DNA of 64,000 nucleotides from Rhizophagus irregularis (GCF_026210795.1 NC_089432.1:5146001-5210000); one strand, 5' to 3'. Positions 22,498 to 47,608 are shown, counted from the stretch's first letter. The notes: a model not told the origin generated them from the sequence alone. Made by a program: numbers and translations.

Positions 22498-24243
22498 ATG
22501 AGCAACTATCCTGGTCAAAATAGTAAGTCCAATAAAAAGTACAGTACTTAGTTTGTAATATTTATTTTCAAAGATACTAGTTATTAACCAACTTCTATTT
22601 AGTTATAATTGAATATTTAAAAGAACGAGGTAGTAAATCAACATATTGTGGATTTTTGAATTTTAACAGTGATTTTATCACTGCTTCAATATCACCAACA
22701 GACACATGTGATAATCTTGATACTGTTTGGTTTTATCACTTTCTAAGGGAGGCAAAATCTCTGTTTAATCAGAAAACTTATATTGTAATAAAAAATAAGG
22801 TGTGTTATTTTTTATTTTGCAAATTTAGGGTAACTTCTAAGTTGGATGCGTTTTGACTTAGGAGAATTACTGATCTTGACATCTTTGGTAACCAATCCAA
22901 AGAACTCATTTTGGGCACCCTAATTTTGTAGTTGATACAAGTCTGCTAATTCTGGAGGAGGAATTGGCTATGTACCTTCTTTTATCACTAAATAAATTTT
23001 GATGCACTACTAATAATTTCTTTCTTATAATAGGTAAATGAAGAACACTCTCGTTATATAAAAAATCTGCAAAATTTCTGGCAAAGAATTATTAAGGAAT
23101 ATAAAAAAGAAAATTTAGTCCCTACTATTACATCTCACTTTAATGAGACATCTGATATAAAGTCATCTGAAATTTCTCAACCAGATAGAATTATTAAAGA
23201 ACACAAAAAGGAAAATTTAGCCCCTGCTGTTACATCTCACTTAAATAAGACATTAAATAAAACATCTGATATAAAATTATCTGAAATTTCTCAACCAGAT
23301 TCTAATGAAACTAAAAAATATGTTGAACAAAAAGGAAAGCTAAAAAGAGTAAGAGATGATAGTAATACTGATACAGAAAGTTTATCTAATGGTAGGTTAT
23401 AATATTTATACTATTTCTTTTACATTTATATAATATATATATTATATTATTATTAAATTATGTTTAATGGTTTAATCATTAGAGCACTGGAAGAAACAAA
23501 GTCAAATTTTAAAACAAAATAAGAATAATTTAGCATATGTCCAAGTTATTGACAATGCACTTCTTGTTGCTTCAGCATATGAGAGTCTTATTGAAAATAA
23601 TATCATACCTTTTATTAAAATTCTAAAAACTTCTTTGCTATCAAGATCACGAATGTCTTTATCATCAGCAAATGAACCTGTACTTCAAGCAATTGTAGAA
23701 AATCTTTTGCCATTAAAATACTGTATCCCAGAACTTGCATTAGTAACTAATGGTAAAAAGCCAAAAGGCTCAGGTCATTTTGGTTATTCAGATATTTTTA
23801 TTTTAAATAGTGAAGGAGATAATAATGTTATTTTAGAATTGAAATATATATCATTAGTTGGACTTATTAATAGTAATCAGAAAAATAATTTTGGTGCAAA
23901 TGAACTTGAAAATCTAGATAAAATACTTGAAAAGGAAAATGAAGAATCTGTATTAAAAAGATCATATACATATTGGTCAAAGGAAGAAAAAAAAACAAAT
24001 ATGACAACTATAGGTGAAACATTAAATAATGGATTGAATAAATTAAATTTATACATGGAAACAATTTCAAAAGGAAAAGCTAAAAACTATTCTAGCTCAG
24101 GAGTATTTGATGATCGTGTTAAAATAACAAAATCTAAACCTAATAAGTTAAAGGGATTTGTTATATTAGTAATTGGTTTTCGTCGTATTTTATGGAAATC
24201 TGCTAATGAAGTAACAACTAACCATATATATAATAAGATCTAA
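22498..24243 (+). CDS. Multi-exon gene with C-terminal PD-(D/E)XK nuclease-like domain
   Basis: ATG at 22498, GT-AG introns; last exon has ANEPVLQAIVE...GYSDIFIL...ILELKY; exon structure not fully resolved. Confidence 0.6.
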
Positions 24244-24492
24244 AATATTTAATTTAGCATATATTGAATTTTTATATACTACTTTCAATTTCTTTGCAGA
24301 AACCCTATCGATATAAAAAATATATTATCAATATTTTTAAAATATACAAGATATATTGATATTCATATTTATGTTATCTCTGTTATAACTATATGTTTAC
24401 AATATGTCAAAATATAATGTAGAAATCTAGTAACTGTGTCAGAGATCTGCTTAAAATATTATTTTGAGTATTTGTCAAATATGTGTCAGAGA

Positions 24493-25255: not shown

Positions 25256-25972
25256 GTCAGAGATATGATAAAATCATTTCAAAATATTAAAATATTAACT
25301 TTATATAGCCTTATGTCAAATATATATTAGTAATATAATAGAAATTCAATTTTATATAACAATCATATATTTTTTTATTTATTTTATTTCAGGTATACTG
25401 CAGTAACAAATACATAACCAAATATGTATTACATATTCAACTAGTTATAAACAACTTCAGATCCTGTGTAACAAAGCAGGCCACATCTCATGCGAGACAA
25501 CTTTTGAAGTGATCCAGTGACATAGTTACAGTACTGATCAATATAAAGGTTAAATATTGAAGTAAAAATTAAAAGGGAAGAAATATAGAATTTTATCATG
25601 GTATATTGTCATATGTCAAAAATTATGATTCACTTGATTTTTTTTTTGTCAGCAATTTGGTGAAATTTTCCTCCAATAAAATTTATGCATGCCCTTTGCA
25701 AAATATTTAAAGAATTTTATATCCATTATAATGTTAGTAATATAGTTATATATTATTAAATAAACTGAACTAAACTGCAATATAACTTCAATTAGTCTCA
25801 TCATACCCAGTATTACATGTACAATCATGAGTAGGGATGGCAACGGTCGGTCATGGTCGGTCATCGGTCGGTTATAACCGGTCAAGAACCTTTGACCGAC
25901 TGACTGACCACTTGACCGACCGGTCTGACCAACCGGTTAACCGACCGTTTGACCGACTGGTTAACTGATCCT

Positions 25973-26488
25973 GTCGTCGGTCTGGATGTGTGTCTCGCTA
26001 CCGCTCACCCCACCTCGGCCTCACGGCCTCGCAGTACCTATATCCCCCTACGGGGGTCAGGAATCCCCATATATACTACTACCATGGCCACAGTGGCCAT
26101 GGCTGGTCACACTACTTTCCAACTCTTTTTTTTTATCCATTTTTTCTTATATATGAAACTACTATGACCACTATGACCACTATGACCAGACTACTAAAAA
26201 GTGGATAAAAACGCGAATAAAGCCAAAATCAGACAGAATATCCGGTCATAGTACTGGCCACAGTTCAAAAAACTTATGATAATACTATGGCCACCTTAGT
26301 TAGCTCCTCAGGCTCCAAAACCCGATTTAAGCTATGACCACCCTTTATCTACTTACCTGAGACACCGAACTATGCCACCGAACTATGACCGCCGAACTAT
26401 GACCACCGAACTATGACCGCCGAACTATGACCACCGAACTATGGCCACTTACCCCGTCAGAAAAAATAAGTAATTGAACAATGGGTAT
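25973..26488 (+). repeat. Left terminal inverted repeat
   Basis: Reverse complement of 39890-40406; begins GTCGTCGGTC; contains ACTATGACC x3 and 14-bp CCGAACTATGACCR tandem repeats. Confidence 0.95.
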
Positions 26489-26527
26489 TGAGAATAGAGC
26501 ATATCCAGATAAGTTTAGAAGACAGTA

Positions 26528-26848
26528 CTAATCCGTCTTCCTCTTTTTTGCCTCCTTAAGGCATTTATCAATACACTGTTTACACGCGTCATCAGAATCT
26601 AAGATTTTCTGTCCAAGTTTTTTGCACTGCCGATTGTAAGCCGTCTGCTGTCTCTTAGCAGCGGTTTCTTTCTTTTTCTCCTTAGTCTTCTTCTTGATCA
26701 CCCAGTCTATTCCAGTAAAAGTATTCTTATGCATACCACAAATTGTGCAGTCACCATGCAGCCGGTAACGCCCATTTGTAGTCATATCTTGTATTTCACT
26801 AGCCGTCTCAGTTTCCTTCTTGCACTTTAGGCAGTAAAAACGTGTCAT
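26528..26848 (-). CDS. Small zinc-ribbon protein (DUF5679-like) with basic tail
   Basis: FYCLKCK...TTNGRYRLHGDCTICG pattern. Confidence 0.7.
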   Translation of the reverse strand: MTRFYCLKCKKETETASEIQDMTTNGRYRLHGDCTICGMHKNTFTGIDWVIKKKTKEKKKETAAKRQQTAYNRQCKKLGQKILDSDDACKQCIDKCLKEAKKRKTD

Positions 26849-26892
26849 TTTAAGATTTGAAGTCTAAAACCATTCCTTTAATTTGTTGTAAT

Positions 26893-27984
26893 ATGTCACA
26901 CTTAGAGAATTACTATAAGTACTACAATCTCTCCGGAGTACCAGCACGAATTCTAAAAGGTGAAGAGCACTACAACCTATACAAAAAGCCCCTAAAGGAA
27001 AAGTCAACAGAACGCCCAAAGGTAATTGTATGGAAACCAAATGCAACACATCAGGCAGATCTTGCAGAGATGCCAGTTGACCCCAAAGGATTCCACTATT
27101 TTCTCGTAGTGGTGGAAGTTGCAGGAAAGAGAGTTGATGCAGAACCCCTAAAGGATAAGACTGCAAATAGAGTTCTAAACGGGTTTGTCAAAATCTACAG
27201 AAGAAATCGTATTAAGCCACCAACACACAGACTGGAGACAGACTCCGGATCAGAATTCACTAACGACCAGGTACGTGATTTTTTCCTGAACAGCCTAGGG
27301 GTAATGATGAGGTTCGGAGAGCCAGGAAGGCATAAACAGCAATCTTATGCTGAAAGAGCTATCCAAGCCATCCAAGAACCCCTTCTTAAACGAATGGTAG
27401 CACAGGAGTTGAAAACCGGGGTGACATCCGTGGAATGGTCAGAAGATTTCCATAATATAGTGAGTAAAGTAAATGAACTCTGGCAGAGAAATCCCCCAGA
27501 CATTCCGACAGGATCACCCAAAGTGTCAAAAAAGACGGATCTCCTCTCTGAAGGAGCACGTGTCAGAGTCAAGTTAGATGAACCTATCTCAGTACTCGGT
27601 AATAAACTTCACGGAAAATTCCGTACAGGAGACATAAGATGGAACCCAAACATTCGTGTAATCAAAAAAATGATACTCTCACCCGAACAGCCTCCTACAT
27701 ATCTCCTTAATGGACCACATGGTCGATTAGGTGTATCCAGATGTGCATATACCCGAAAGGAATTGCAAGTAGTTCCTATTAATGAAAAGCCTCCACCTGA
27801 CTCTGTGATAAGAGGACAACCTGAAAGATTTGTTCCTGAGCAGATACTTCGGCATCGCATTAGAAAAGGTCAAGACCAGTATTTGGTTAAGTGGGAGCGC
27901 TATCCAGACACTGAGGCTACTTGGGAACCTGCTGACCGGTTGAAGGAGGATGTCCCTGACTTAATTCGCAAATTTTGGGAATAA
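26893..27984 (+). CDS. Retroviral-type (rve) DDE integrase with C-terminal chromodomain
   Basis: HQADL, LETDSGSEF and AERAIQ catalytic motifs; EQILRHRIRKGQDQYLVKWERYPDTEATWEP chromodomain; first ATG at 26893. Confidence 0.93.
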   Translation: MSHLENYYKYYNLSGVPARILKGEEHYNLYKKPLKEKSTERPKVIVWKPNATHQADLAEMPVDPKGFHYFLVVVEVAGKRVDAEPLKDKTANRVLNGFVKIYRRNRIKPPTHRLETDSGSEFTNDQVRDFFLNSLGVMMRFGEPGRHKQQSYAERAIQAIQEPLLKRMVAQELKTGVTSVEWSEDFHNIVSKVNELWQRNPPDIPTGSPKVSKKTDLLSEGARVRVKLDEPISVLGNKLHGKFRTGDIRWNPNIRVIKKMILSPEQPPTYLLNGPHGRLGVSRCAYTRKELQVVPINEKPPPDSVIRGQPERFVPEQILRHRIRKGQDQYLVKWERYPDTEATWEPADRLKEDVPDLIRKFWE

Positions 27985-28008
27985 AAAAAATAGAAGAATT
28001 AAAGGGTC

Positions 28009-30174
28009 TTATTTTTTATCCCCTCGATTAGCATCAGGAACTATCGGGATAAAAACATTCTTCCCATCACAGGTAAAGGCTATATGTTCACGTGATTCAT
28101 GGACATCATAATTGTAACGTTTCAGACACGTTCGGCTTAACCCAATTTCCCTATGCTTGTAACCACTTAAGACTGCAAGGTCCTCAGTGATAGCATAATC
28201 AGGGGTAAGTTTGATTGTCACTCCCTTTACCATGCCGAATGTCCTACCTGTTCCTGAAGCACCAGATATGTTATATGTAATACTCTTGTCAATATCCAAC
28301 CCTAATTCCTCAGCAGCTTCTCTCTGAATAAAAGACGCATTAGCACAAGTGTCTGCTAAACACTGAATTGCTATTCCATTAACCTCCCCATCCAGTGCTA
28401 AAAGATCTTTAGTATTCTCTAAACGAGCTATGTCAATATCCATAGGATCATCTACCCTGATATCCTCTTCTTGTTCCTCCTCAACTAGGTCCTCCGAAAT
28501 CTCTGTGACTTTTCTAGCAGACAATAACTCCTCCTGAAGAATCTCACGGAGTAATTTCCTAAAGTCTGCAGACCTTAACAGGCTTAATAAATCATTCTTA
28601 GTAACAGCTTTTGCAGGTGTAAACTTACTACCAGTAACTTTCACAGGAATCTTAACAGGGGTTGCTTTGCCTTTCAATGGCACACTAGAAGAGTTAACTG
28701 CTGTCTTATTTGGGGACGACTTAAGAAGTTTTGAGATACTCGAACCTACTTTTTTTGACCCAACACGAACCATATAGACATCACCATCTTTTTCTCTCAA
28801 TTCTACCTTTTCACCAAAACTCGCAGTATCAATGTCCATAGCATCATCATTAAGATCGAGGTTTCTCATTGCTCGGGCCAAATCCAGATCATCACGTCTA
28901 TCTTTAGCCTTCTGAAGTTGTTTTGTAAGTATTTTAGACGTCCCACGTTTATATCCCATAATAAGATCAATAGCATTTTGATGATCATCCAAAGTCCACT
29001 CAGGAGCATCAGGGTCATCACCAACATCATGATCTACATAACCATCATCCCAATCAGGATCCTGAGGATCCTGAACAACACGTCTCTGTGGTTTTGGTCG
29101 AACAGGTTTAATCTGCTGTCTATAGACTGGTGGATTACGAACTGGCCGAGCCTGTAATTGTTTAAATTGCACCTGAAAATTCTTGGTAAGTTCCTCAGCT
29201 TGAGCCTTAAGTAACTCTTGTAATTGTTCTTGAGTAACCCCAGATGACTTTGATGTCAGTACTACAGGTTCCTGTTTTCCTAACGGAGGTTGAGTTACAT
29301 CACTGTAATCTGCTTGAAGTCGTCGATTTCTATCTTGTAACCCCAAGCGCATTTCAGCCCTTCTCCGTTCTAAATTTCTCAGATGTTTAACCAAGTCATC
29401 AGGATTAAGATTACTAAACCTTTCTGCTTCAAAAATATTATCAGCCGAAAGACCTCTAAAGAACTGGTCGATAATAAGATCATCAGTTAGTTTTAGTAAT
29501 TTTCCAGCTCTCTTTACAGTTCTATAAAATGCATCGACTGGCTCATTTTCCTGATAAAGACTGTTAAAACGGATACGTTTCTTTTCATCTAAAATAGTTG
29601 GAAATTGTGTTCTAAGCCAATAAAGCGCCTGGTTAGGTTTAATACCTGGAAAAACTATAGAACGATTATTATTAGCAGCAACACCAGCATCTGCAGTAGC
29701 TGGAGCAGCTCTATCTGTCGGACGAGCACCAGCTCTTCCCCAAGCTTTATCTCCACCTATTAAATCATGGGTAGGAATAAATGCTGCTCTAATAGTTACT
29801 AATGCATTAGCTGCATCTGTAGCATAAACATGTGCTTCAGACCCATTTACATAGGTACCTGCATTTGGTCCTCCTGCACCTTCTGGTATTACTAATGCTA
29901 CAAAAGCAGCTAAATTAGCTCCACCTCTTGAAGTGATACCAGAAAGTTCCCAATTTTTTCCTGTAATTTCTCGATCAAACCATTCAGCCGCTTCACCAGC
30001 CATGCAGCTTCTAAGTATACCCATAGCTCTTTTCCAAGACTCTGGTGGCCCTCCAGCAGCGTATGGGTTAAGATTGATAGTATCAAGATAACCCATATAA
30101 AGCCTAACAAATGTATCAATATCATCAGTAGCTTTACCCTCAAAAATTGGCAATCCTATCGCAGTGGTAGCCAT
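28009..30174 (-). CDS. Ty3/Gypsy-like Gag capsid protein fused to a retropepsin-like aspartic protease
   Basis: PIFEG...DIDTFV, GEAAEWF, LYQENEPVDAFY...IIDQFFRGL (CA/MHR-like); AMDID and PMDID motifs; C-terminal LADTCANASFI...ISGASG...IGLSRTCL retropepsin pattern. Confidence 0.78.
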   Translation of the reverse strand: MATTAIGLPIFEGKATDDIDTFVRLYMGYLDTINLNPYAAGGPPESWKRAMGILRSCMAGEAAEWFDREITGKNWELSGITSRGGANLAAFVALVIPEGAGGPNAGTYVNGSEAHVYATDAANALVTIRAAFIPTHDLIGGDKAWGRAGARPTDRAAPATADAGVAANNNRSIVFPGIKPNQALYWLRTQFPTILDEKKRIRFNSLYQENEPVDAFYRTVKRAGKLLKLTDDLIIDQFFRGLSADNIFEAERFSNLNPDDLVKHLRNLERRRAEMRLGLQDRNRRLQADYSDVTQPPLGKQEPVVLTSKSSGVTQEQLQELLKAQAEELTKNFQVQFKQLQARPVRNPPVYRQQIKPVRPKPQRRVVQDPQDPDWDDGYVDHDVGDDPDAPEWTLDDHQNAIDLIMGYKRGTSKILTKQLQKAKDRRDDLDLARAMRNLDLNDDAMDIDTASFGEKVELREKDGDVYMVRVGSKKVGSSISKLLKSSPNKTAVNSSSVPLKGKATPVKIPVKVTGSKFTPAKAVTKNDLLSLLRSADFRKLLREILQEELLSARKVTEISEDLVEEEQEEDIRVDDPMDIDIARLENTKDLLALDGEVNGIAIQCLADTCANASFIQREAAEELGLDIDKSITYNISGASGTGRTFGMVKGVTIKLTPDYAITEDLAVLSGYKHREIGLSRTCLKRYNYDVHESREHIAFTCDGKNVFIPIVPDANRGDKK

Positions 30175-30953
30175 ATCGTCTCTAGTGGATTGTTTAAAAG
30201 AGGTGGAGGAGGGTTCAATTGTCTAATTCGAAACCATTGTACCTGAATTCTAAGAGCAGCTATCTGTTGGAAAAGTCTATTCCTAAGTCTTCCTAATGTC
30301 TGAATCCCAAAACGCACCCTATTATTAGCATGTGCTAGCTGTGCATTAACCTGTCCAAGTTGCGCATTAGCCAATACAAGTTGTCCTCCAGTCCGAGTAG
30401 CCCTCAGCCGCCAATGATTTAAAAGGATATTACCACGATTCACAGCATTTTGAGCCTCATTACGATCCCTTACTGCTTGAGTATAATCTGCTTGTAATAC
30501 ATTACGTTCATGTCGTGCCTGATTACGTTCACCTATAGCCCGTCGACGAAGCTCTACCATAGTATCATAATCTCTTTGCAGGTTATGGTTTTCTTCTATG
30601 AAATTATCATTGGCAGCACGTATAATAACTAATTGACGTTCTAAATTAGTAAACGTTTCATCAAATGCATTTATCTTACCTTGTGCAAAAACTAACAAAT
30701 CTTTTGTAATACCAAGTTCTTCATATTTTGCTTTACAGCGATACATTAATATATTAATAATATGTTTGATTTGATTATTTGCCTCCTGTATCTCTGAATC
30801 AACAGTTAAACGACCCCTGGTAGTCAATAAATTTGCATGAGCCTTAAGTATTCTAACTAATTCATCATCATTTTCTTCATTGGTCAAGTGTGCAGGAGGC
30901 GGTCCAGTAGGTTCTGAAGGAGTATAAACTGGAATTGGTGTTGATGTCGACAT
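30156..30953 (-). CDS. Coiled-coil protein, probably the N-terminal part of the Gag polyprotein
   Basis: 265-aa heptad-rich ORF overlapping the Gag ATG by 19 nt in the -1 relationship. Confidence 0.7.
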   Translation of the reverse strand: MSTSTPIPVYTPSEPTGPPPAHLTNEENDDELVRILKAHANLLTTRGRLTVDSEIQEANNQIKHIINILMYRCKAKYEELGITKDLLVFAQGKINAFDETFTNLERQLVIIRAANDNFIEENHNLQRDYDTMVELRRRAIGERNQARHERNVLQADYTQAVRDRNEAQNAVNRGNILLNHWRLRATRTGGQLVLANAQLGQVNAQLAHANNRVRFGIQTLGRLRNRLFQQIAALRIQVQWFRIRQLNPPPPLLNNPLETIWLPLR

Positions 30954-30984
30954 AGTATTTAAACTAAGTTAGAATAAAATTCAA

Positions 30985-32208
30985 ATGGATCTTTATGTAT
31001 ACAATTTGGACGAGTACACGACCGACTCAAGACAAGGCAATGAGTTTGCTCCATCATGGCCCTTTCGATTAGCCGTAGCAGGTAGCTCAGACTCAGGTAA
31101 GACAACTATGATCATTAATTTGTTAATGGGTGACAAGAAAGCAAAGGAGGATGGTAATCGGTATGTACTATGTGATGCAGTACTTTTAGTTGGCAGATAT
31201 CTTGACGAGCCAAAGTGGGCAGTTGTACATGATTTTTTCGAAGAGGAGAAGATCCCATTCACTGCAGTAACCCATAGTGAGATTCCAGAGATTGATTCCT
31301 TCGACCCTACTCAAGCTACTGTGGTAATCTTCGAGGATCTGATGGATGCACCTAAAAAAATCCAGGATCTCATCACTGGTTACTTTACACATGGACGACA
31401 CAAAAATATTTCATGTATTTATGTAGCCCAAAGATTCTTTGCCATTCCTAAGGCTATTCGAGAAAATGTTAACTACATCTCACTGCATGGAGGTCATGGG
31501 AGCCTTACAGATACCAAGAGAATCATCCGCCTATATACAGAAGAATCAGAGTCATTAGCACCAGTAATTGATGATCTTACTCTGCAACGTGAATTTGTAG
31601 TGTTTGATCTTAGACGGTCCAAAAGTGATCCACTGTCCATTCGAGTAAGATGGGATACTAGTCTCAGTTCGATCACAGAGCAATCTCAGTTCAATCCTAG
31701 TTCGATCTCAGTTCAATCTCAGTTTGATCCAAGTTTGAACCCAGTTCGATCTCAGTCTGAACCCAGTTCAATCACAGTTCGATCCAAGTTTAGTCCCTAT
31801 GGTCAGAAAGCTGTATTTGAAGCAAAAAAAGGTGGACACTTGATTGAATTTGCTCGGGTATTTCCATCCCCTAAAGAACGTCAACATTTACTTGTACCTG
31901 GTGTCTTAGCCAAGAATGCAGATACCTGGATTAAATATGTCTTTCGGGAAGCTTATGGACTCTCTGGTAAGACCCTAGGAGCTGACTTTCAGGATTTCTT
32001 AGCAAAAGTACAGGGTAAGACTGCAAAGACTGAAACTCTGAAAACTGAGAATGTGAAGGAGTTATTCTCCCGATATGAAGCCCTGAAGTCTAGTCACCCT
32101 CTGGATAATAAACAAATAATAGAAGGTATTGAAGTCCTTCTACAGATCTTTTCTAAGAGCCACATGGACCGTCGAGCATTACAAGTAGGAATTAATAGTA
32201 TCTTGTGA
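30985..32208 (+). CDS. A32-like (FtsK/HerA) DNA-packaging ATPase with C-terminal extension
   Basis: Walker A GSSDSGKT, Walker B VVIFED, and FTHGRHKNISCIYVAQ arginine-finger/Q motif typical of Polinton and poxvirus A32 ATPases. Confidence 0.9.
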   Translation: MDLYVYNLDEYTTDSRQGNEFAPSWPFRLAVAGSSDSGKTTMIINLLMGDKKAKEDGNRYVLCDAVLLVGRYLDEPKWAVVHDFFEEEKIPFTAVTHSEIPEIDSFDPTQATVVIFEDLMDAPKKIQDLITGYFTHGRHKNISCIYVAQRFFAIPKAIRENVNYISLHGGHGSLTDTKRIIRLYTEESESLAPVIDDLTLQREFVVFDLRRSKSDPLSIRVRWDTSLSSITEQSQFNPSSISVQSQFDPSLNPVRSQSEPSSITVRSKFSPYGQKAVFEAKKGGHLIEFARVFPSPKERQHLLVPGVLAKNADTWIKYVFREAYGLSGKTLGADFQDFLAKVQGKTAKTETLKTENVKELFSRYEALKSSHPLDNKQIIEGIEVLLQIFSKSHMDRRALQVGINSIL

Positions 32209-32752
32209 GAATATCAAGTAATTCGTCTGCAGAAGCTTTAAGAATCATAGCACTTTTTTTACGGCCTTCAAAGTCAATCCTTAACATCTTAGCCTTCAAC
32301 CCTATTGCTCCTAAAGCACGAGAAGCAAAGTTCTTAGTCATTGGATTACTTATATGATTTACATAGTTCTCATAGAATGTAGTGAAAGGCTCGTCAATAC
32401 CATCTGGATATGTATCCCTTAGAAATTGATATAAAGCAATTTCTCCACTGTCATAACCTATGGCTATAAGCTGTTCGAGAAGCCACTTCCTAATATCTTC
32501 ATATGGCTCTCCATCCATAATATTCATATCCAGTTTTTGTGTAAACAATTGTGTAAAGTCCACATTACTTCCCCGACGAATGATCTGAACTAACTTATCC
32601 CTAGCAAGTCCCAAGGCTTGTAAAGGTTCACTCTCGTCGCCAATCTTCTTTATAATCTGTCTATACAACACGCTGGATAATCCTCTATATGCTGTTTTTG
32701 GAGTGATTACTCCACAGTTTTGGCATTGGTTTATTACGATTGATGTTGACAT
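32192..32752 (-). CDS. Hypothetical protein, possible C-terminal winged helix
   Basis: 186-aa ORF; FTTFYENY...TKNFASRAL resembles the D5 C-terminal wHTH pattern; upstream TTTTGAA motif. Confidence 0.6.
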   Translation of the reverse strand: MSTSIVINQCQNCGVITPKTAYRGLSSVLYRQIIKKIGDESEPLQALGLARDKLVQIIRRGSNVDFTQLFTQKLDMNIMDGEPYEDIRKWLLEQLIAIGYDSGEIALYQFLRDTYPDGIDEPFTTFYENYVNHISNPMTKNFASRALGAIGLKAKMLRIDFEGRKKSAMILKASADELLDILTRYY

Positions 32753-32797
32753 GGCTATCTTTCTTTATGTAAAAAAGAATTATTCAAAATTAAGTAA

Positions 32798-33379
32798 CTA
32801 TTCGGAGCAGTCCTTGCACAACTTGTCCGTTAAGTCACTTGGGCTTACAGGCATGAGACATTCCCTACACAACTCAATATTAAGCTCTGCAAGTCTCGGG
32901 GTATGGTCTTCCAAAGTTCGTGGACGACCGGAAGGACCGGAGGAAAGTGTTCCGTTAGTCGTATCTTGCTGTAAGATAAAATCATCATATTCATCTTGGT
33001 CAGCCTGAATAGCAGTCCTGATTTGTTGTATATCATTGAAAGTTAACCGCTGCCCATCAAGATTTTCCTCATTATAGCGTGTTTCATTGATGATTTCCTC
33101 TATAAGCGCCTCTTCTTCATAATGGACAAGGTAGTAATCCTCAACTACCTCATAGTCACTCTCAATCAGTCTATAATATGTTCTAGTACCACGTCGAACA
33201 TAACGTCCTGTATCTGTATTTAAATATACAGGTTGCTCTTCAGGTGGAGGTGCAGTTTGTCTACAGACAAGCCTTCCATCAATATAATCATGGGATTCCA
33301 TAACTATTCGATTAAAGGTATCTCCACCGATAATAATTGGACGTCCAGTTATAGGGTTAGCTATATAAGGGTAAGACAT
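32798..33379 (-). CDS. Protein with two NPxTGR-type (2-cysteine-adaptor-like) repeats and a C-terminal CxxC/CxxC finger
   Basis: IANPITGRPIIIGGDTFNRI, YLNTDTGRYVRRGTRTYYRL and CREC...CKDC. Confidence 0.65.
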   Translation of the reverse strand: MSYPYIANPITGRPIIIGGDTFNRIVMESHDYIDGRLVCRQTAPPPEEQPVYLNTDTGRYVRRGTRTYYRLIESDYEVVEDYYLVHYEEEALIEEIINETRYNEENLDGQRLTFNDIQQIRTAIQADQDEYDDFILQQDTTNGTLSSGPSGRPRTLEDHTPRLAELNIELCRECLMPVSPSDLTDKLCKDCSE

Positions 33380-33437
33380 GTCTTTTTTCTGTACGTGTCT
33401 ACATACCTAATAGTTTTCTTCAATTTACAATAACCAA

Positions 33438-33648
33438 GTGACACGGTCATCAGTCCTTATCAAAAAATACGAGAATACCTGATGACAAGGTTACATGGTC
33501 ATCAATCCTTATTAAAAAATGCAAGGATACCTGATGATAAGGTTACATGGTCATCAATCCTTGTCGAAAAAATGCAAGGATACCTGATGATAAGGTTACA
33601 TGGTCATCAGTCCTTGTCAAGAAATATGAGGATACCCGATAAATAAGC
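33438..33648. repeat. Four tandem ~52-bp imperfect palindromic repeats
   Basis: Unit GGTTACATGGTCATCA(A/G)TCCTT...AAAAAATGCAAGGATACCTGATGATAA. Confidence 0.9.
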
Positions 33649-33665
33649 TACTCCTGTTAGTCCAT

Positions 33666-34070
33666 TCATACCACTCCCAGTCCCCAAGGATCGCCTCCCC
33701 ATCTTTGTTCACTTAATGCATACTCTATGGTTTCCCTCTCTTGGGGGTCCACGACCATCCCATTCCTAAGCATTTTTTCCATAATATAAAGCTGATCCTC
33801 GGTAAGGCAGTTTATCCATCTTTTATAGAGGTCGTTTACATCTTCAAACGTTATCCAGTCAATTTCCCTCTTTATATAATGCTTTCCGAGAGCTCGGATT
33901 TCACAGTACACATCCCTGATCGTAGTGGCATAATTTTTCCACCTCTTATATGCCTCTCGACGAACTTCCTGCCACCACACTCTATCTACCTTACTCGCTG
34001 CAATAAGGTCAGTATCCGGGATTTTTGTGACAATGCGTTCGACTATTTCTACTGGTAACCGGTCTAACAT
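33666..34070 (-). CDS. F-box protein (element-borne)
   Basis: LDRLPVEIVERIVTKIPDTDLIAASKVDRVW is a clear F-box consensus. Confidence 0.8.
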   Translation of the reverse strand: MLDRLPVEIVERIVTKIPDTDLIAASKVDRVWWQEVRREAYKRWKNYATTIRDVYCEIRALGKHYIKREIDWITFEDVNDLYKRWINCLTEDQLYIMEKMLRNGMVVDPQERETIEYALSEQRWGGDPWGLGVV

Positions 34071-34163
34071 GATGTTATGTTACTTATACTATAGCCATCT
34101 TCAATTACTGTATGCCCATTACAAATGGATAAAAAATATAAACTAAATTCGTACAGGAGCCGC

Positions 34164-34634
34164 TTATGCAAGAAGTTCTGCTAAGGTTTTCTCAGCCTCA
34201 TTCATAGTGACAGCTCGCTTTGGGGGACCTGTTAATGAGTCCTTAGTTACATTATAATACAACTCGAAGAGGGCCTCAAGTTTGTCTAAAAGAGCTTGTT
34301 TATTCTTGTATGATTCACGAATCTTTGCTATCTTAGCAGTATATGCTGCATTATCTGGGAAGAGTTTTCTGGCCACGAACTTCACATATGATACAGGAGA
34401 CTTTGCTGTCTGGATTCTCTTGATATACTTCACATGATCCTGGACAAGGTAGCTGGTTTTGCTAAACCCAGATACTAATGCGACTACTATAGTGTCTTTC
34501 AATGCACGGATAATCTTGAGGACAGTTTCATCAGAGACAATGGTGAACTGATTGTGTGATGCATCATAAATAACTTTATCACTAATGCTGTCAGTGCTGT
34601 TAATAATGCTTGCTAATTCGGTATATGTTGACAT
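34164..34634 (-). CDS. Hypothetical protein
   Basis: 156-aa ORF co-oriented with neighbours, with upstream motif and downstream T-run. Confidence 0.65.
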   Translation of the reverse strand: MSTYTELASIINSTDSISDKVIYDASHNQFTIVSDETVLKIIRALKDTIVVALVSGFSKTSYLVQDHVKYIKRIQTAKSPVSYVKFVARKLFPDNAAYTAKIAKIRESYKNKQALLDKLEALFELYYNVTKDSLTGPPKRAVTMNEAEKTLAELLA

Positions 34635-34747
34635 GATTCCTTATACTTTTTTGTACTTTGTAATAAATAGGAATCTTCAAATTGACTTTACATTCAAGCA
34701 AGAAAAAATATATATACCTACTGTAAATCCAACCGCATTCTTGGCAA

Positions 34748-36628
34748 TCATGTCCAGATAACCTTGTTTGCATTTTTCACATGGCAGTATCCTGCGGTTT
34801 CAAACTTGAGAGCTTTCAATGCTTTGGATGCATTTTCTGGACAAGTGATAAGTGTAGGACTACTCGGCTGTTCCTCTAGAATAAATCCATCTGTATGGAT
34901 GCGTCGTACTTTATCCTTATATGGTTCTAATAACTCTGAAGTCGTCTTCCGTCCATGTGCTAATAAGAATGGAGCGATCCTAGGATACTCACCCTTGAAG
35001 GGACTACCTGGGTTTGTGAACTGGAATCGCCACTGGTCAGATCCTACTGGTACGATGGAGTCAAGTGTGTGGCCTTCTGGAAACTTGAATGGATCTGTTT
35101 GATCTGTGGTGAGTGTCTTGTAATTGCGTTTCCTCTGGCAGAGTGCTCCCCATAGTGTATTGAGAACTCTCTTTGCAACACGACCGGCCACGCCACCCTG
35201 GTTCTTTATATTGAAGAGAAAGTGGACATACTCACCAAATATTACAGTCCCAGGAATTCTTGCTTCTCTGTCATATATCAAGGCATTTGGCTTTCCATCC
35301 TGGATTAACTGTATATCGAGTCCAAGTTTCTTTGCTCGTTGTAAGTCAATGAATGTATAGACTCCCCTCTTATTCTGTCGGAAGAGAATGTCATTACCAC
35401 TTACCTTGCCCTTGGGCGCTCCCTGGGAGCTAGCACGAAATAATCCATACAAGGCATAACCTCTATGGTCTACAAAGTCTTTGAGTATTTGAAACTTACC
35501 TTGTCGGATTGGAAAGTTTGCATTTGATTGCTGAATACTTGGATACAAACTTGTCACGTCGTATTGCCTTCCATAGCCCTTCCATTCATTGTCTGCCCAG
35601 ATAAGACCTCCCATCATTGCATCACTTATCCACTCTGCTTCGACTGGGTCAAGAGGATCATTGGCTGGAACCCCTACACTAAACCGTTCAAAAAGCCAGA
35701 GTGCAGTTCTCTTGTACGACCAGTTGTGGTAAGATAAGTCGATTCCTAGACCGAACTTCTTTGTAGCCTGTAGGAAGGAATCCCGCTCTTCATGGATCCT
35801 CTGGTATGTTTTCTCAAGTGTTTCATATATTCCAGTTTTACAATTCTTCTCGATAGGGATGAAGGAGTAACTATCAGAGTTCTTACCTTTCTGAAACTGT
35901 CCAACTGTAAGAGACTTAACTGTCTTACCATTGTATATTGTTACTACATTATTAACCCCATCTTCACGATAAACAAAGGGAGACTTTTGTTTTCTATCTA
36001 ATTTGCTAGGGTGGAGTCTTCCGGGATTCAGTGCAAGAGAGTAGTGGCCTTCAGACAGGATAAGTGTTGCACGTCTGTCAGATTTGCTCTTGGAAATTCG
36101 AGTGGAATCCCCTACAATATTAAGTGCAAGGCTTCCTGCAAGTTGTTCAACCTTATCCATATATGAGACTGGAACTGGAGCATCACGATTGAGACCTAAT
36201 GCCTTTTTGATATACTCGGGCTTTTTGATTGACTTTGGCATTTTAGAGAATGTGCCGTAGATATATTTCAGGCATTCATACAGGCAATCATTTAGCTCCC
36301 CGTTGCAACCCCCTGCAACCGGTGGGGCATCTCTCACATAAATTATGAATCGTTCAAAATAATCAGGGTCTGCATCATCCGGTAGTTGTGCTTCGTCGTA
36401 GTGGTCCAAGAGTGAGAAGAGGCTGGCTGGTTGGTTTCCTGATGTCCATCCACCGGGTTTCCAGTTTTCATAGGGAAGCAGAATCTGAAATTTATGTGTC
36501 GGATACCGGGATTGGAGTTGCTGTCCAAGTCTGGCAATAGCTCCTCTAGAAAATCTTGCGCCTGAATACTGTAGTTCTTTGATATCTGGTCTTGTAGGCA
36601 AAGCACGTGCAATTTTTGAATAGGCCAT
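34748..36628 (-). CDS. Divergent protein-primed family B DNA polymerase
   Basis: MMGG, YDVTSLYPS, KRVLNTLWGAL and RIHTDG polymerase motifs; N-terminal NDCLYECL...GHY. Confidence 0.88.
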   Translation of the reverse strand: MAYSKIARALPTRPDIKELQYSGARFSRGAIARLGQQLQSRYPTHKFQILLPYENWKPGGWTSGNQPASLFSLLDHYDEAQLPDDADPDYFERFIIYVRDAPPVAGGCNGELNDCLYECLKYIYGTFSKMPKSIKKPEYIKKALGLNRDAPVPVSYMDKVEQLAGSLALNIVGDSTRISKSKSDRRATLILSEGHYSLALNPGRLHPSKLDRKQKSPFVYREDGVNNVVTIYNGKTVKSLTVGQFQKGKNSDSYSFIPIEKNCKTGIYETLEKTYQRIHEERDSFLQATKKFGLGIDLSYHNWSYKRTALWLFERFSVGVPANDPLDPVEAEWISDAMMGGLIWADNEWKGYGRQYDVTSLYPSIQQSNANFPIRQGKFQILKDFVDHRGYALYGLFRASSQGAPKGKVSGNDILFRQNKRGVYTFIDLQRAKKLGLDIQLIQDGKPNALIYDREARIPGTVIFGEYVHFLFNIKNQGGVAGRVAKRVLNTLWGALCQRKRNYKTLTTDQTDPFKFPEGHTLDSIVPVGSDQWRFQFTNPGSPFKGEYPRIAPFLLAHGRKTTSELLEPYKDKVRRIHTDGFILEEQPSSPTLITCPENASKALKALKFETAGYCHVKNANKVIWT

Positions 36629-36711
36629 TTGATATAACTATGAATTGTATTCAATTGTAATATAGGTTTTTTATATAAAAAATATAAGATAACTAAGAGG
36701 CGCTTATCTTA

Positions 36712-39200
36712 TTAAAAGGAGTCAATCATATCACAGGCCTCATCAATATCCAGCTCGTCTACAAATCCATTAGCGGCTTCCCATTCACGTTCCATATCAG
36801 TTTTTGGACGTTCCTCTGGGATTTCTCGTGCCTTACCCTTATTCATCTTCATAGTTTCATAACCGGAGGTGGTAGGGATAATCTCGGCATCATGATCCTC
36901 CTTATATGCTCTTATTAGATCTGCGAGTTCTTTACGGCTAGGTGTTTTAGGTAAGTACCCATTATATTCTATCCAGTCCTTGAAGCGGTCTACTACCTCC
37001 CTAAGGTAGTACTGGTACTCGTCCTCAATACGTGTTGTGGGACATTCCTCTACTTCAAACGCGAGTATTTTCCAGTCATAGTTGTCTGACACGTCTTGGT
37101 ACTTAGCCCATAAATCCTTACCTGTATTGTGGAGATCATTGAAGACCTGGTCCTTTGAATTCTTGACCCATGGCTTACGATCCCATCGGTGCCTTTCATG
37201 CCAAGCCCAGTGTGCTCGAGTACCTTCCTTTGGTTCAGGGTCCCAGTCAACTTCTAGTTCTGTGTCGGGTTCTGGGATAGGTTGCTCTTTAGGAGCCGGT
37301 TCTGGGTCAGGCTTAGTGACAGATGCAGAAAATTCTGCGGGAGACTCAGGTTGTTCTTCAGGAGCCGGTTCTGGGTCAGGCTTAGTGACAGATGCAGAAA
37401 ATTCTGCGGGAGACTCGGGTTGTTGTTCAGGAGCTGGGTTCACAGTTGTAAAATCTGAGTCAGATAGCAAGTCATCTAAGACGTCATAGTCATCAACAGC
37501 TTTAAGTGCAGGTTCTTCAGCAGGCGGCTCATCTTCTTGATCAGGTTCCTCATCAGATAGATAACAGTCTGAGAAGCTATCTATAGGTTCATCAGTATCT
37601 GACTCTATAGGAGCTGGAGATTCCTCAGGAATAGGATCCTCATTGATGACAGGTGCGGGTTTTACCTTCAAGCAATCGGGCTTAAGTGGTACTGGTGGTG
37701 GAGTCTTTTTGGTTTCTTCAGTAGGCTTCTTCTCGACAGAAGCGGGTTTTTCCTCAGCAGGTTTCTCAACAACTGGCTCTACTTCCTCTTGATCTACCTG
37801 TGCTTCCTGTATGTCTTGTGTCTCCTGGATTACTCTACTAAAATTCTTCGCAATTTTTGCTTTATCTAGTATGTAATAGTTTATTCTAGCACCTGAACGT
37901 CTTGGGCGAGTTTTAGGAATAAATTGCTTAATCTCCATACCAAACTTATTATCACTAAGTGTTTTGTTTTCGCCCTTCTCACTGCACCAATTCTGGTAAG
38001 TGCTATAGAAATTTGTACAAGGAATTTCAAGTGTATCACAATTGTCGGGCCACATCATTTCAAGGTAATATTGTATGAAACGCTGGGGATTTGGAATACT
38101 TGCTTCGATTAGCTCCTGTTTCATTTGAGTATCAGGAATAGATCGGGGATTGAAGCTAGTTAAGTCTCGGCTAAGTAAATAGGACATGAAGGAACTGGCT
38201 GTATCCGGATTTTCTAATACTTTTACGAGAGAACCGAAGTATTCTCTATTGCCCTTATATTTGGCTGAGACGTTGAGAGCTACAAATCTTTCATCTCCCA
38301 TTTCTATACGGATTGGCATAGCATGATTACTGAGGATCATGTAGCCAGCAAAGTCATCAATAACCTTCACATCTATCCCCTTTTCCTCGATAGAGATGTA
38401 AGGCTCGGTGATTAAACTCTTGAGTCGGTTGTTTGCCCCGTGCCATTCCTTGCCTGACATATCACATTCATTGAGGATGATAAGTTTTTTGGCACGAACA
38501 GCCGCATTGAACCTTCCCATTACATCTTCAAGACGCGTAGTGGAGAGGAAGTTTTCACGGCCGAGAATACGTTCTCCGATAAAATCGGTTAAGATATTCT
38601 TACCACATCTGGGGGACTGCGCATAATAATTGCTGTACCGGGTTTTTTGTCAGGATTTTGAACCAGAAATGCAAGCCAGTTGAGGATGTACGTGGTTAAC
38701 TGCTTGTCCTCTGCACACCATACCTTATGAACATGTCGAATGATTGGATTAACTAGGTTCGGTTTGATGTGCTCAGCGGGTTGAGCCCTGAAACCTAGAA
38801 AGAGATTGAAGAATTCAGGATTATACTTTGGCGCGTTTGGGGGATAAGGCATGAAGTTTACATCTGTATAACAGATCTTTGTGACTGAGGCTTGGATAAG
38901 AAGGTCCTTTAACTTGATGGATGTGGTCATACCATCATCTTCTCCTGCATCTGACCGAATACTTACCTTGTGCTTAGTAGAAATTCCCTTGAGATCTGCA
39001 GCAAACTCGAAGTATATGCTTCCATTATAAGCCTTCTTTTTTCTGATCCACATGCCGGACTTCGTGGTGATGAAAGCCACAGAAGCTGAGATTGCTGAAT
39101 TGATGCTTTCTTTTATGTGTGTACCTATACACTTTTTAAGAAGGTCATCGTAGAAGAAACGGTTGTTGGGGTTAAAGATTGCTGGAACTTGAGCGGCCAT
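36712..39200 (-). CDS. D5-like/SF3 helicase with long acidic Pro-rich tail; one frameshift at ~38611-38615
   Basis: Joining the two ORFs at the G5 run yields Walker A RSPPRCGKN, Walker B ILNE and motif C ILSN, plus FNLFLGF and wHTH FYSTYQNWC; ATG of MAAQ at 39200 preferred. Confidence 0.85.
37290..37425 (-). repeat. 60-bp tandem duplication in the helicase tail (QPESPAEFSASVTKPDPEPAP x2)
   Basis: Direct repeat visible in DNA and protein. Confidence 0.9.
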
Positions 39201-39434
39201 TTTTTGTTCTATCAAATCGAGTACTAATTTATAGTTACCTAATCTTCAATTGCCGAATATTTTTTCCAAAGATCTGCACTCCTACCAGGTTACCCTCCTG
39301 TAGTCCTGTGGTCCTGCGGTTCTGCGGTCCTCCGGTTATATCTGGTTATCTTTTAGGGGTAAAAAAAAACTATAAACCACGAACCTTTACGACTGCTCTA
39401 AATCTTCCCTTCCCCCTTTTCAATCCACGTATAT

Positions 39435-39872
39435 CTAGTGAAATCCACACCGCTCAAGAGCCCACCTTACCATTATTTGCTCTTTTCTAGCGTCCGTTAA
39501 CTCTTTACAAGCCTTTTGATACTCCTTCCAATTAAGCTCATGAAGTTCACGATTTCCAATACCCTCTTCCTCAAATGATTGACCAAGAGCATCCCCCGCT
39601 TTTTCCTTCTTTTCTACTGCCCTGTCGTATGCCTCCTCGGCTTTCTCATATCGCTTCCACAACTCGGCTTTACAACAGTTGTACCAGAGTCTGTTTATCT
39701 TGAGGTGCTTTCCAAATTCTTTGGCCGGAAGGTTTCTGACTATTTCTGCTACTATATCTGGGTCGTTGAGGGGCGATGCCCGCATTTGGATCCATTTACG
39801 GATTCCATAGATGTCTACAAGATCAAGTCCGAGGTCTTCGGCAAGATAAGTGGCTGCGTGTAAGTTCATCAT
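39435..39872 (-). CDS. Second F-box-like protein with coiled coil
   Basis: SPLNDPDIVAEIVRNLPAKEFGKHLKINRLW resembles an F-box and the 33666-34070 protein. Confidence 0.6.
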   Translation of the reverse strand: MMNLHAATYLAEDLGLDLVDIYGIRKWIQMRASPLNDPDIVAEIVRNLPAKEFGKHLKINRLWYNCCKAELWKRYEKAEEAYDRAVEKKEKAGDALGQSFEEEGIGNRELHELNWKEYQKACKELTDARKEQIMVRWALERCGFH

Positions 39873-39889
39873 TGTATATTACTTATGGT

Positions 39890-40406
39890 ATACCCATTGT
39901 TCAATTACTTATTTTTTCTGACGGGGTAAGTGGCCATAGTTCGGTGGTCATAGTTCAGCGGTCATAGTTCGGTGGTCATAGTTCGGCGGTCATAGTTCGG
40001 TGGCATAGTTCGGTGTCTCAGGTAAGTAGATAAAGGGTGGTCATAGCTTAAATCGGGTTTTGGAGCCTGAGGAGCTAACTAAGGTGGCCATAGTATTATC
40101 ATAAGTTTTTTGAACTGTGGCCAGTACTATGACCGGATATTCTGTCTGATTTTGGCTTTATTCGCGTTTTTATCCACTTTTTAGTAGTCTGGTCATAGTG
40201 GTCATAGTGGTCATAGTAGTTTTATATATAAGAAAAAATGGATAAAAAAAAAGAGTTGGAAAGTAGTGTGACCAGCCATGGCCACTGTGGCCATGGTAGT
40301 AGTATATATGGGGATTCCTGACCCCCGTAGGGGGGATATAGGTACTGCGAGGCCGTGAGGCCGAGGTGGGGTGAGCGGTAGCGAGACACACATCCAGACC
40401 GACGAC
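39890..40406 (-). repeat. Right terminal inverted repeat
   Basis: By eye differs from the left TIR at about 3 positions (one homopolymer indel, two transitions). Confidence 0.95.
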
Positions 40407-41488
40407 ATCCTGAAAATGTTTGCGAAACATAATTTAATTGAAATACTTAATAAAAAATGTTTTCGCAACATTTTCTATTAAAATAATTAAAAAAACGTTT
40501 GCGAAACATTTTTTTTATTAAATTAAGTTTCGCAAATGTTTTCAGGATCGGTTAAACGGTCAGTCAAACGGTCAGGATCTTTGACCGACCAATATCGGTC
40601 ACGGTCATGACCGGTCATAACCGGTTAATGACCGTGACCGTTGCCATCCCTAATCATGAGCATGTGATCAACAAAATCAATTGAAAAGATTCGAAACCAA
40701 TGTTCCTAAATACCATAAAGTAGACATCTTAATATAGAATCAATAGGGGATGAAGATAAATACATATTCGGATTCAGTTGACAGGAAGGCTTCTTGAATG
40801 GTCACATTATACAAAACAGAAAAATTTTCATTTTTGTTAGATGTGGATGGGTGTTATTTCATTAGGGTTTAAGGTTAAATTTCTTTTGGAATCATATAAG
40901 TTGTTAGATTTAAGTATATTTTTGCAGTTAACATTAACAATATATATTTGAGTTAAAGATTATGGTTTGTATTAGATTAGTTAAAATTTAGCACTTAAAA
41001 GATTCTTGTAAACTAAAAAATTTGTTAAAAATGAAAAAACTAGTTTCCTTCAGTTTGAGAGAAAAGAAAAGAGAGAAAAATGAGGTAAAGCTTCATTAAA
41101 AAGAAGTTTAAGAAGTTTTTAAAAAAAGTTTAAGCTATACTTTAAGAAAATGGTTAAAGTTTAAAAAAAAGTTTAAACTTTAAGAAAAAATTTAGTTTAA
41201 AAAAGTTTAAACTCTTAAGAAAAAGCTTATACTATATCATGTGATACATGTGATACATAATTAAATATGGGCCTTTCCGATAAAAATGTTTTCCCATTAA
41301 TTTATTTTACAATTATATTTAAAAGGTACATATATATAAATGTCACATGTATTTAACCTTATGAAAAGCCTCTACTCCATAAACAGGTAGAGGCTATTAG
41401 GTATTAGCACCTATAGAAAAAGCCATTGCTGTTCCCTCCACCTATTTATAGTGATAAAAAGAGGGAGTCTTCAGTAGTAAGGCGTAAT

Positions 41489-42969: not shown

Positions 42970-43897
42970 AGATGCTCTTTCAAATCTATTTGAGTTAGAT
43001 TTCAGCATCTATTTGGGTTTAGGTTGTGTGATTCAAGATATCAAAATAATTATCATGAATTGGCACAAATATGCAGATCAATAGAAAAAATTTATATAGG
43101 CCTTAGTAGCCCTGAAATTATTGAATGCAAAAACAGATTAAATACATATATGTAAAGGAAGATGGTAATTGTGAGAAAATAAACCAAGCTTTATAAAAAC
43201 ATGCAAATTCAATTGTTCTTTTAAATTTAACAATATATACAAAAAATGGATCCTTTCTATATGATTTACTCCTTCCAAAATTAATTAATTTACAATATTT
43301 AAAGATAAATAATATGGAATCAAAATGTATACTAGAGCATGTAATATATTTAAATTATCACAACCTTCAATACTTGATTTTGTAAAAGTATCACTTGATA
43401 TAGCAATAAATATTCAAAATACCAATGGAAATCTATGGAAAATTAAAATTAGACGCACTGCTGATAATGATCATGTAAAAGAATATAATCAGACAATCCA
43501 CCAATATCGCCTAAATATAAAATATGTTTCAGTATTTTTAAATGATGATGAACCCTGAAAGAACTAGAGAATATTTTCATCAAATGCCAACATTTGGTAG
43601 CAATAGATATATTTGAAAATTTTAGTTATGAATATGCGAATAAATTGCTGAATTTTATTGGTTGATTTAGCTCCACTCACTTTATACAGACTTCACATTG
43701 ATTTTATTACTAATTTTGATAGAGAATCTTTAAAATTATTTTTTACTAATTGTAAAGGTAGAAAAACTTTATATTTATATCATCTTTATAATTACTTACG
43801 TGAAAATTTTGTAGTGAAAGATATTATAGAACTAGATTACTATGATGATGATTTTTGGAATCATGAAATTACAATGTTAAATGATGAACAAAAATGA
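42970..43897 (+). pseudogene. 5'-truncated, frameshifted F-box/LRR paralog
   Basis: High similarity to ~46305-47225 with stops and indels. Confidence 0.85.
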
Positions 43898-47225: not shown

Positions 47226-47608
47226 ATATAAAATTTAATTATTACTAGTATGAAGTTTTTTTAAATATAATTGATATAATTTATATTCTAAAGTATAACA
47301 GATAATGTATTTGTATGCATAAAATTAAAAATTGGATTATCAAAACTTTTATCATAATAAAAAGAAAATTAAAATCAAACTTATGATAGTTTTATACTTT
47401 TAAGATTCAGTTAATATTATCTTATATATAAACAAATAAGTTTAAAACAAAAAGTTTCAGAATTAATAAAATCAACAATTTTTTAAAATATAATATACAA
47501 GAATACAGTCTTACTAGCATGGCAGACATGCTTATATCACCTTGCTGATCATTTGCCAATTACATAATTCCAATTTTAAAATTTATTGCAAAAGCCACAA
47601 ATATTTTC

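Follow-up and report, generated by a model that had tools for sequence, protein, structure and literature searches.

Conserved upstream motif and downstream T-runs as candidate early promoter and terminator signals of a Maverick/Polinton in Rhizophagus irregularis

How are the genes of a chromosomal DNA element transcribed when a virus-like signal stands before each of them and no RNA polymerase gene is found among them? This question is raised by a stretch of Rhizophagus irregularis DNA of 64,000 nucleotides (nt) (GCF_026210795.1 NC_089432.1:5146001-5210000), referred to here as the window, from whose first letter all coordinates are counted. The block at 25,972-40,407 (14,436 bp, about 41% GC as against about 25% GC in the host) is, as judged from its sequence, a Maverick/Polinton of R. 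irregularis, an already known type. A first-pass annotation had noticed the motif AWTTGAA shortly upstream of nine of its open reading frames (ORFs) and had proposed a virus-like promoter. The motif is a conserved signal ahead of the genes of the element. We favour, by a modest degree, the reading in which the motif and a T-run behind the stop codon serve as early promoter and terminator for the RNA polymerase of an asfarvirus-like helper giant virus. The element type and the undetected capsid are already known, while no published account of the transcription signals was found; literature on polintons, on Rhizophagus and Glomus Mavericks and on helper early promoters, in a coverage that largely lacks subscription journals, held no description of the promoters or terminators of this element, nor was anything on its promoters present in the available portions of PMC5294986, PMC11296320, PMC13533422 and 10.64898/2026.06.19.733378.

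The nine sites of the first-pass annotation are all correct in coordinates and strand, with 21-44 nt from the end of the motif to the ATG; eight of them read AWTTGAA and one reads TTTTGAA. An additional AWTTGAA (AATTGAA) is located at 30214-30220, 39 nt before the ATG of the Gag-protease ORF; it lies within coding sequence, that of the ORF upstream, and its conservation does not extend to the diverged relative L010. Two ORFs omitted from that annotation have the A variant of the motif equally far upstream, ATTTAAA at 30957-30963 before the packaging ATPase and AATTAAA at 26877-26883 before the DUF5679 protein. In a gene set of 13 ORFs of at least 100 aa, from which short overlapping frames were left out, AWTTGAA is present in 9 of the upstream 60-mers, whereas 5000 dinucleotide shuffles gave 0.47 on average and never more than 4, and the best 7-mer of the same shape sought de novo reached 7 at most in 1000 shuffled sets. 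Nine of the 12 AWTTGAA sites of the element fall within intervals that make up 1.7% of its positions (P=2.6e-14). In the host, the motif is found upstream of 0 of 12 long ORFs, a weak control because many of them are probably exons, and in 88 of 2418 host windows (3.6%). When the two halves of a split helicase gene are joined, and likewise the overlapping coiled-coil and Gag ORFs, 11 transcription units are inferred, and every one of the 11 is preceded by WWTTRAA starting 28-51 nt ahead of the ATG.

The signal recurs in diverged relatives (52-88% polymerase identity), obtained by a metagenome scan of 37 loci from which 31 gene starts and 44 gene ends were picked by hand; L009, L028, L031 and L022, and for the starts also L004 and L008, were left out as near-duplicates. 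AWTTGAA precedes 14 of the 31 starts (0.9 expected) and AWTTRAA 23 of the 31 (3.9 expected). In a TATA-type promoter, transcription starts about 30 nt downstream of the box. All nine polymerase orthologues have the motif start only 26-30 nt ahead of the ATG, leaving little room for such a start. Among 38 fungal sites, G occupies the centre in 26 and A the second position in 24, the base after GAA is never A, and the variants ATTTGA and ATCTGA are present among the relatives.

Two additional features accompany the motif at a distance. The dinucleotide TA peaks at +14 and +18 after it, at 18 of 34 sites each, a count that no position reached in 5000 shuffles. A run of six or more T residues (T6) occurs within 100 nt past the stop codon in 10 of the 13 ORFs of the element (1.2 expected), the exceptions being the first helicase half, the coiled-coil ORF and a 186-aa ORF with its run at +361, two of which are ORFs that are probably not the ends of units. 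Of the gene ends of the relatives, 42 were tested after exclusion of two with less than 60 nt of flank, and 33 of them have T6 (4.6 expected) in the context WTATTTTTTWT. Hairpin-like stretches (z <= -1.5) were found before 3 of 10 T-runs only, giving no general support for hairpin termination.

The first-pass annotation likened the motif to those of Mimivirus and of yeast linear plasmids, while the closer match turned out to be the grammar of asfarviruses, with the core AAAATTGAAT and poly-T termination. AAAATTGAAT is the core early promoter of African swine fever virus (ASFV) (PMC8906413), the early initiator of which is TA(+1)NA and the terminator a poly-T run (PMC7163114), and pacmanvirus has the promoter AAAATTGA and the 3' motif WWTTTATTTTTTAWW, with a transpoviron sharing the same promoters (PMC11788076). 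The 3' context in the fungal lineage resembles WWTTTATTTTTTAWW as well as the poly-T termination of ASFV, and the TTGAA core stands at a fixed short distance before genes, as in early promoters of the asfarvirus type; neither the A-run that precedes the core in AAAATTGAAT nor an invariant G was found in the element. Of the proposed virus-like promoter, an early promoter of a virus type finds support in fixed spacing, conservation, the TA at fixed distance and the T-runs, without the A-run typical of nucleocytoplasmic large DNA viruses (NCLDV). In 18 asfar-like contigs recruited via RPB1 (21 less three near-duplicates), AWTTGAA was counted in 49 of 238 regions ahead of genes, where 7.0 would be expected, and T6 in 127 of 243 regions behind them, where 41 would be. 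The corresponding counts are 37/628 (17 expected) and 128/639 (75 expected) in 52 other NCLDV loci, and 5/103 (4.8 expected) and 15/102 (17 expected) in eight free virus-like relatives with the same type of polymerase. The G form and the T-run ends are probably, by these counts, particular to the fungal lineage among the relatives examined.

The free relatives instead carry HTTAAAR at -28 to -50, in 28 of 38 ORFs of the replication block versus 12 of 50 others, the two classes having been set by hand after the motif was seen. Because this motif stands before their replication genes, AWTTGAA is probably an inherited early promoter of the lineage. A sharp early/late split is observed in the free Polinton-like and virophage-like contigs L002, L003, L037, L162-L165, L242 and L243, where RACTTAAAG or ATTTAAAG is located 32-45 nt before replication genes and is mostly absent before integrase and structural genes. 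The virion module of the free relatives includes a Sputnik-type penton (L003), a protease (L162) and A32 ATPases, while their major capsid candidates gained no confirmation by Pfam or PDB sequence search. The proteins of the eight match the polymerase, integrase, helicase and ATPase of the element only.

A promoter read by a helper is favoured because motif, spacing, TA peak and T-runs occur together, because none of the 13 ORFs gave a Pfam match to an RNA polymerase domain, in agreement with the first-pass annotation, and because both signals match those of asfar-like contigs. A viral early transcription factor would bind the motif, and the viral polymerase would start at the A 15 nt after it and stop in the T-run, so that the mRNAs would be short and cover one gene each. 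Before the arrival of a helper, the integrated copy would stay largely silent; it would then be excised or copy itself by means of its own polymerase, helicase and integrase. The models for this are mavirus with Cafeteria roenbergensis virus (CroV) and PgVV with its helper. As to history, from a state like that of the free relatives, with HTTAAAR on replication genes only, the fungal lineage would have lost the capsid module and moved to the G form and to T-run ends that match asfarviruses.

Several observations on the signals, on a possible helper and on transcription weigh against a helper polymerase. A is present at -2 and -1 in only 10 and 8 of the 38 fungal sites, as against 40 and 39 of 50 sites in asfar contigs, and asfar-contig sites without the A prefix are hardly enriched (7 versus 3.7 expected); some asfar promoters also have no A-run, for example that of the RPB1 gene of the ASFV-like L173. 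A replaces G in 12 of the 38 fungal sites (TTAAA variants), and this G has been called invariant for poxvirus-type factors (PMC6211774). The 34 sites of the TA test are related, 9 of them being polymerase orthologues, and the relatives are not independent. Coding strands hold 2 T-runs where 4.0 are expected, which is no significant depletion (p=0.22), and T6 is also found behind 8 of 12 AT-rich host ORFs.

The helper reading is favoured, on the other hand, by a candidate helper, a 1.5-Mb asfar-like region of R. irregularis strain 4401, which carries genes for RNA polymerase, capping enzyme and late factors; all five strains carry 15-33 asfar-like polB copies, while the helper polymerase genes are reported in 4401 only, and the large subunit of the RNA polymerase is listed there as a pseudogene (PMC10640383). 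Of the 912 matches to an asfar-like RPB1, the best 120 include none from Rhizophagus. The 4401 region was read by eye as text in 60-nt rows, with ATG triplets rather than checked ORFs, and on this basis AAAATTGAAT appears to be in use there ahead of ATG codons. Of 21 readable rows with AAAATTGAA, 12 have an ATG 19-27 nt behind it, compared with 3 of the 25 control rows (p=0.002), the interval having been chosen post hoc on the plus strand (8/8 versus 1/13); also on the plus strand, T follows 15 of 22 AAAATTGAA hits versus 6 of 20 controls. The minus strand alone, with 30 of its 36 hits inspected, gives 4/13 versus 2/12 (p=0.64). AAAATTGAA is not in global excess in the region (58 on both strands versus 44 and 87 in controls), and sites without the A-run are at chance, with 3 of 16 readable rows (30 of 50 inspected) and 1 of 4. 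By this by-eye reading, the 4401 region would have the core in common with the element, but not the A-run. At rows ~24,105-24,113, the region contains a diverged C-terminal fragment of the HTD-type polymerase that the element also carries (KRIHTDGFI in a by-eye translation), which may reflect gene exchange or a later insertion; a text search with six sequence words found no inverted second copy. The start of the region (rows 1-202) recurs inverted at rows ~24,160-24,360, near 1.46 Mb, which suggests that a complete genome is integrated and that its terminal inverted repeats (TIRs) measure 12 kb or more, a feature not mentioned in the available portion of PMC10640383.

Reads of four RNA runs with the same species label were mapped to positions 26490 to 39960 only, with no host-gene depth control, and gave 119, 162, 95 and 75 reads on the element from about 11 million records each. 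They run in both directions, and 52-78% of them run on into unlike sequence. In each run, 9-13 reads pass 26,848 across the divergent promoter (26848-26893), in diverged-copy sequence. Start peaks at the motifs were not seen at this low depth and among diverged copies, and no transcript start or end site could be mapped from such trace-level reads. The latest expansions in R. irregularis include that of Mavericks, many copies of which are weakly methylated (PMC8647823), and this expansion is seen in a strain with no viral RNA polymerase reported in the portions available (PMC8647823; PMC10640383).

In the foremost alternative, the motif would be an inherited early core promoter read in the nucleus by the host RNA polymerase II (Pol II) as a TATA-like box, the T-runs would be U-rich polyadenylation signals, and the element would be a self-sufficient transposon with its asfarvirus likeness as a relic or convergence. 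We take it seriously while considering it less probable than the helper reading. Chloroviruses rely on host Pol II, and immediate-early genes of iridoviruses require it. The fungal motif matches in position the HTTAAAR of the free relatives (28/38 versus 12/50), which in turn resembles the chlorovirus ARNTTAANA at -15 to -45 (PMC5294985). The TTAAA variants in 12 of 38 sites, the missing A-run and the recent expansion in a strain without a known helper (PMC8647823) are also in line with Pol II. Against these stand the polymerase-gene spacing of only 26-30 nt, and the co-occurrence of the G form with T6 ends in the fungal lineage and in asfar-like contigs and not in free relatives. The trace-level transcription, 75-162 reads of about 11 million per run, also argues against an active host promoter, although silencing would explain it too. 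In addition, the dominance of G at the centre (26/38) is unlike a TATA box.

An element-encoded factor might instead bind the motif, such as the 186-aa protein with its weak winged-helix lead, or the genes might be read by RNA polymerase III (Pol III); we regard both as unlikely. The winged-helix lead scores below 0.9, and the motif class is present in relatives where no such ORF was found. T6 terminates Pol III, but T6 runs are present inside the coding strands of the integrase and the ATPase; mRNAs of 2-3 kb made by Pol III are, moreover, very unusual. The Pol III parallel of the T-run is noted in PMC7163114. A polymerase of the type found in yeast virus-like elements (VLE, linear plasmids) seems slightly more improbable still. 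Yeast elements have ATNTGA 20-40 nt before the start codon (PMC6211774), to which the ATTTGA and ATCTGA variants of the relatives conform, while most fungal sites read AATTGAA, with A at position 2 in 24 of 38. The parallel is further weakened because yeast elements terminate at stem-loops (PMC6211774), and hairpins are weak or absent before 7 of 10 T-runs. Neither a reduced RNA polymerase of its own nor stem-loop termination was found for the element, the partner plasmid not having been searched for, and no report of such a plasmid in Glomeromycota was encountered, in the absence of a search aimed at one. A chance origin of the motif in AT-rich intergenic stretches, where the 7-mer turns up in 3.6% of host windows, can practically be dismissed, pure composition being rejected by the shuffles, the multiple-testing control de novo, the position test and the conservation in relatives.

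With the helper-read promoter as the preferred reading, a wider proposal can be put forward tentatively, which we would not call probable. The Maverick of Glomerales might be a capsid-less chromosomal hyperparasite of an asfarvirus-like fungal giant virus, with all genes rewired from TTAAAG to the TTGAA promoter and poly-T terminator of the helper, a polymerase gene exchanged with the virus, and the jelly-roll capsid replaced by a retrotransposon Gag-protease; bursts of the element would then record giant-virus infections. If so, an element filed as a capsid-less transposon would be a giant-virus parasite and, with its host virus, the first such fungal pair found in the literature, and the pairing might explain by what means Polintons without a capsid come to be expressed and to spread. 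Maverick transcription would be a read-out of active giant-virus infection in arbuscular mycorrhizal fungi, a group that has yielded no isolate of such a virus. With a predicted start (A at +15) and end (T-run), the helper reading can be tested directly, and if host Pol II is the reader, the motif would still be a defined core promoter for a Polinton clade.

The first-pass annotation had suggested that the element may be a virophage- or transpoviron-like parasite; it is better described as the known capsid-less Maverick/Polinton of Glomus/Rhizophagus. Maverick/Polinton is known from Glomus intraradices, where a capsid gene was not found (PMC7805220), and has expanded in Glomerales (PMC11952901). 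The element at 25972-40407, assigned to neither strand, is bounded by a left TIR of 517 bp (25972-26488, plus), which differs by 2 mismatches and 1 gap from the right copy (39890-40407, minus), and is flanked by a 5-bp target site duplication, ATCCT, at 25967-25971 (plus) and 40408-40412. It encodes a protein-primed family B polymerase (PF03175, E=1.7e-7), an rve integrase with a chromodomain (PF00665, E=5.2e-9) and an A32-like packaging ATPase (PF04665, E=3.2e-9). Its polymerase shares 95% identity with R. irregularis proteins, and many copies exist at 80-99%. No Pfam match to a double jelly-roll major capsid, penton or cysteine protease was found in its ORFs, the small ones being outside the fold analysis; the large ones are all assigned to non-capsid products. 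The Maverick sits within a small element with short inverted ends (~25835-40650), probably a host miniature inverted-repeat transposable element, and both flanks carry several direct and inverted copies of a host F-box-like gene family (5954-7312, 43100-47240 and 55800-57220).

At the left end, the DUF5679 protein (106 aa, 26528-26848, minus), with T6 on its strand at 26461-26466, diverges from the integrase (363 aa, 26893-27984, plus), which has ATTTGAA at 26855-26861 (plus) and T6 at 28012-28017. The Gag-like protein with a retropepsin-type aspartic protease (721 aa, 28009-30174, minus; T8 on its strand at 27983-27990) matches the protease in Pfam at E=4e-8 and gag only weakly (E=0.086; gag Atlas lead score 0.94), and two predictions of its fold were of low confidence (pLDDT 35 and 40). 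It is overlapped in another frame by the coiled-coil-like ORF (265 aa, 30156-30953, minus; motif at 30980-30986), the pair spanning 28009-30953 on the minus strand, and the same junction is present in L010 (5995-9423). Because no T6 lies behind the coiled-coil ORF, the two are likely one transcript. In a Maverick that lacks a jelly-roll capsid, a Gag-protease of the retrotransposon type might serve in place of the shell or as cargo; the Gag-like protease ORF is not mentioned in the available literature on Glomus Maverick/Polinton, in which the original 2006-2007 descriptions are not covered. The ATPase (407 aa, 30985-32208, plus; T7 at 32254-32260) has tandem repeats of 11-nt units in its linker (31640-31804).

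The following ORFs are all on the minus strand. The 186-aa ORF (32192-32752; TTTTGAA at 32783-32789), the first T7 of which lies 361 nt past its stop, has a weak lead to a D5-type winged helix (score 0.84). A 193-aa ORF (32798-33379; motif at 33419-33425, T6 at 32771-32776) has a 2-cysteine adaptor match below the cut-off (E=0.0016), and a 134-aa ORF (33666-34070; motif at 34100-34106, T6 at 33567-33572) a weak F-box match (E=0.011). Tandem repeats of ~52-nt units, with an A6 run in each, lie between these two ORFs (33410-33651). A 156-aa ORF (34164-34634; motif at 34676-34682, T6 at 34131-34136) is followed by the polymerase (626 aa, 34748-36628; motif at 36650-36656, T6 at 34703-34708), whose motif C is of the HTD type. 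The family of this polymerase is large (828 clusters at E<1e-30, ~600-650 aa), and HTD in motif C and a Cys115/His195 pair close to the N-terminus are invariant in it; the region of this pair we take to be possibly an OTU-like protease domain. The D5-like helicase (36712-39200; motif at 39245-39251, T6 at 36677-36682) contains a duplicated acidic stretch in its tail (37290-37430) and is split in this copy by a frameshift near 38,600; the ORFs are otherwise uninterrupted, as expected from the intronless structure claimed earlier. The last ORF (145 aa, 39435-39872; T9 at 39361-39369) has its motif at 39900-39906, inside the TIR. Among the NCLDV loci examined, seven small ORFs of the element have no match; in the viral contigs searched, the ATPase has no relative, and a single integrase query gave two weak loci.

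Of the known systems, the Maverick/Polinton of G. intraradices shares with the element the TIRs, the 5-bp duplication, the rve integrase, the protein-primed polymerase, the A32 ATPase, the D5 helicase and the absence of a detected capsid. Early signals of ASFV and pacmanvirus have in common with it the AWTTGAA core, a 3' motif with a T-run and, as candidates, a TA initiator-like site and short leaders; unlike those signals, those of the element have no A-run before the core, tolerate G to A, and show no A after GAA, and unlike asfarviruses, the element is nuclear and has no ORF for an RNA polymerase. The yeast plasmids pGKL1/2 are linear TIR elements that likewise have a protein-primed polymerase and, 20-40 nt before each ORF, a motif with a TGA core (PMC6211774), but they use their own or a partner plasmid's RNA polymerase, terminate transcription at stem-loops and have no integration by an rve integrase. 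Transpovirons, including that of pacmanvirus lostcity (pltv), and the Polinton-like virus PgVV-14T are capsid-less or small TIR-bounded DNAs with the AAAATTGA promoter of the helper, and PgVV is reported to share the early motif of its helper (10.1101/2022.07.28.501842); transpovirons are ~7-kb episomes carried in virions, whereas the element is twice as long, encodes integrase and polymerase and has many chromosomal copies. Mavirus and the endogenous mavirus-like elements (EMALEs) of Cafeteria are integrated in the nuclear genome, silent until a giant virus infects, and share promoter motifs with the helper (PMC8547959). Mavirus makes virions and has a late TCTA motif, whereas the element, with no detectable capsid, penton or cysteine maturation protease, bears an early-type motif on all units; nuclear integration is common to both and, by analogy, so may be silence until a helper arrives.

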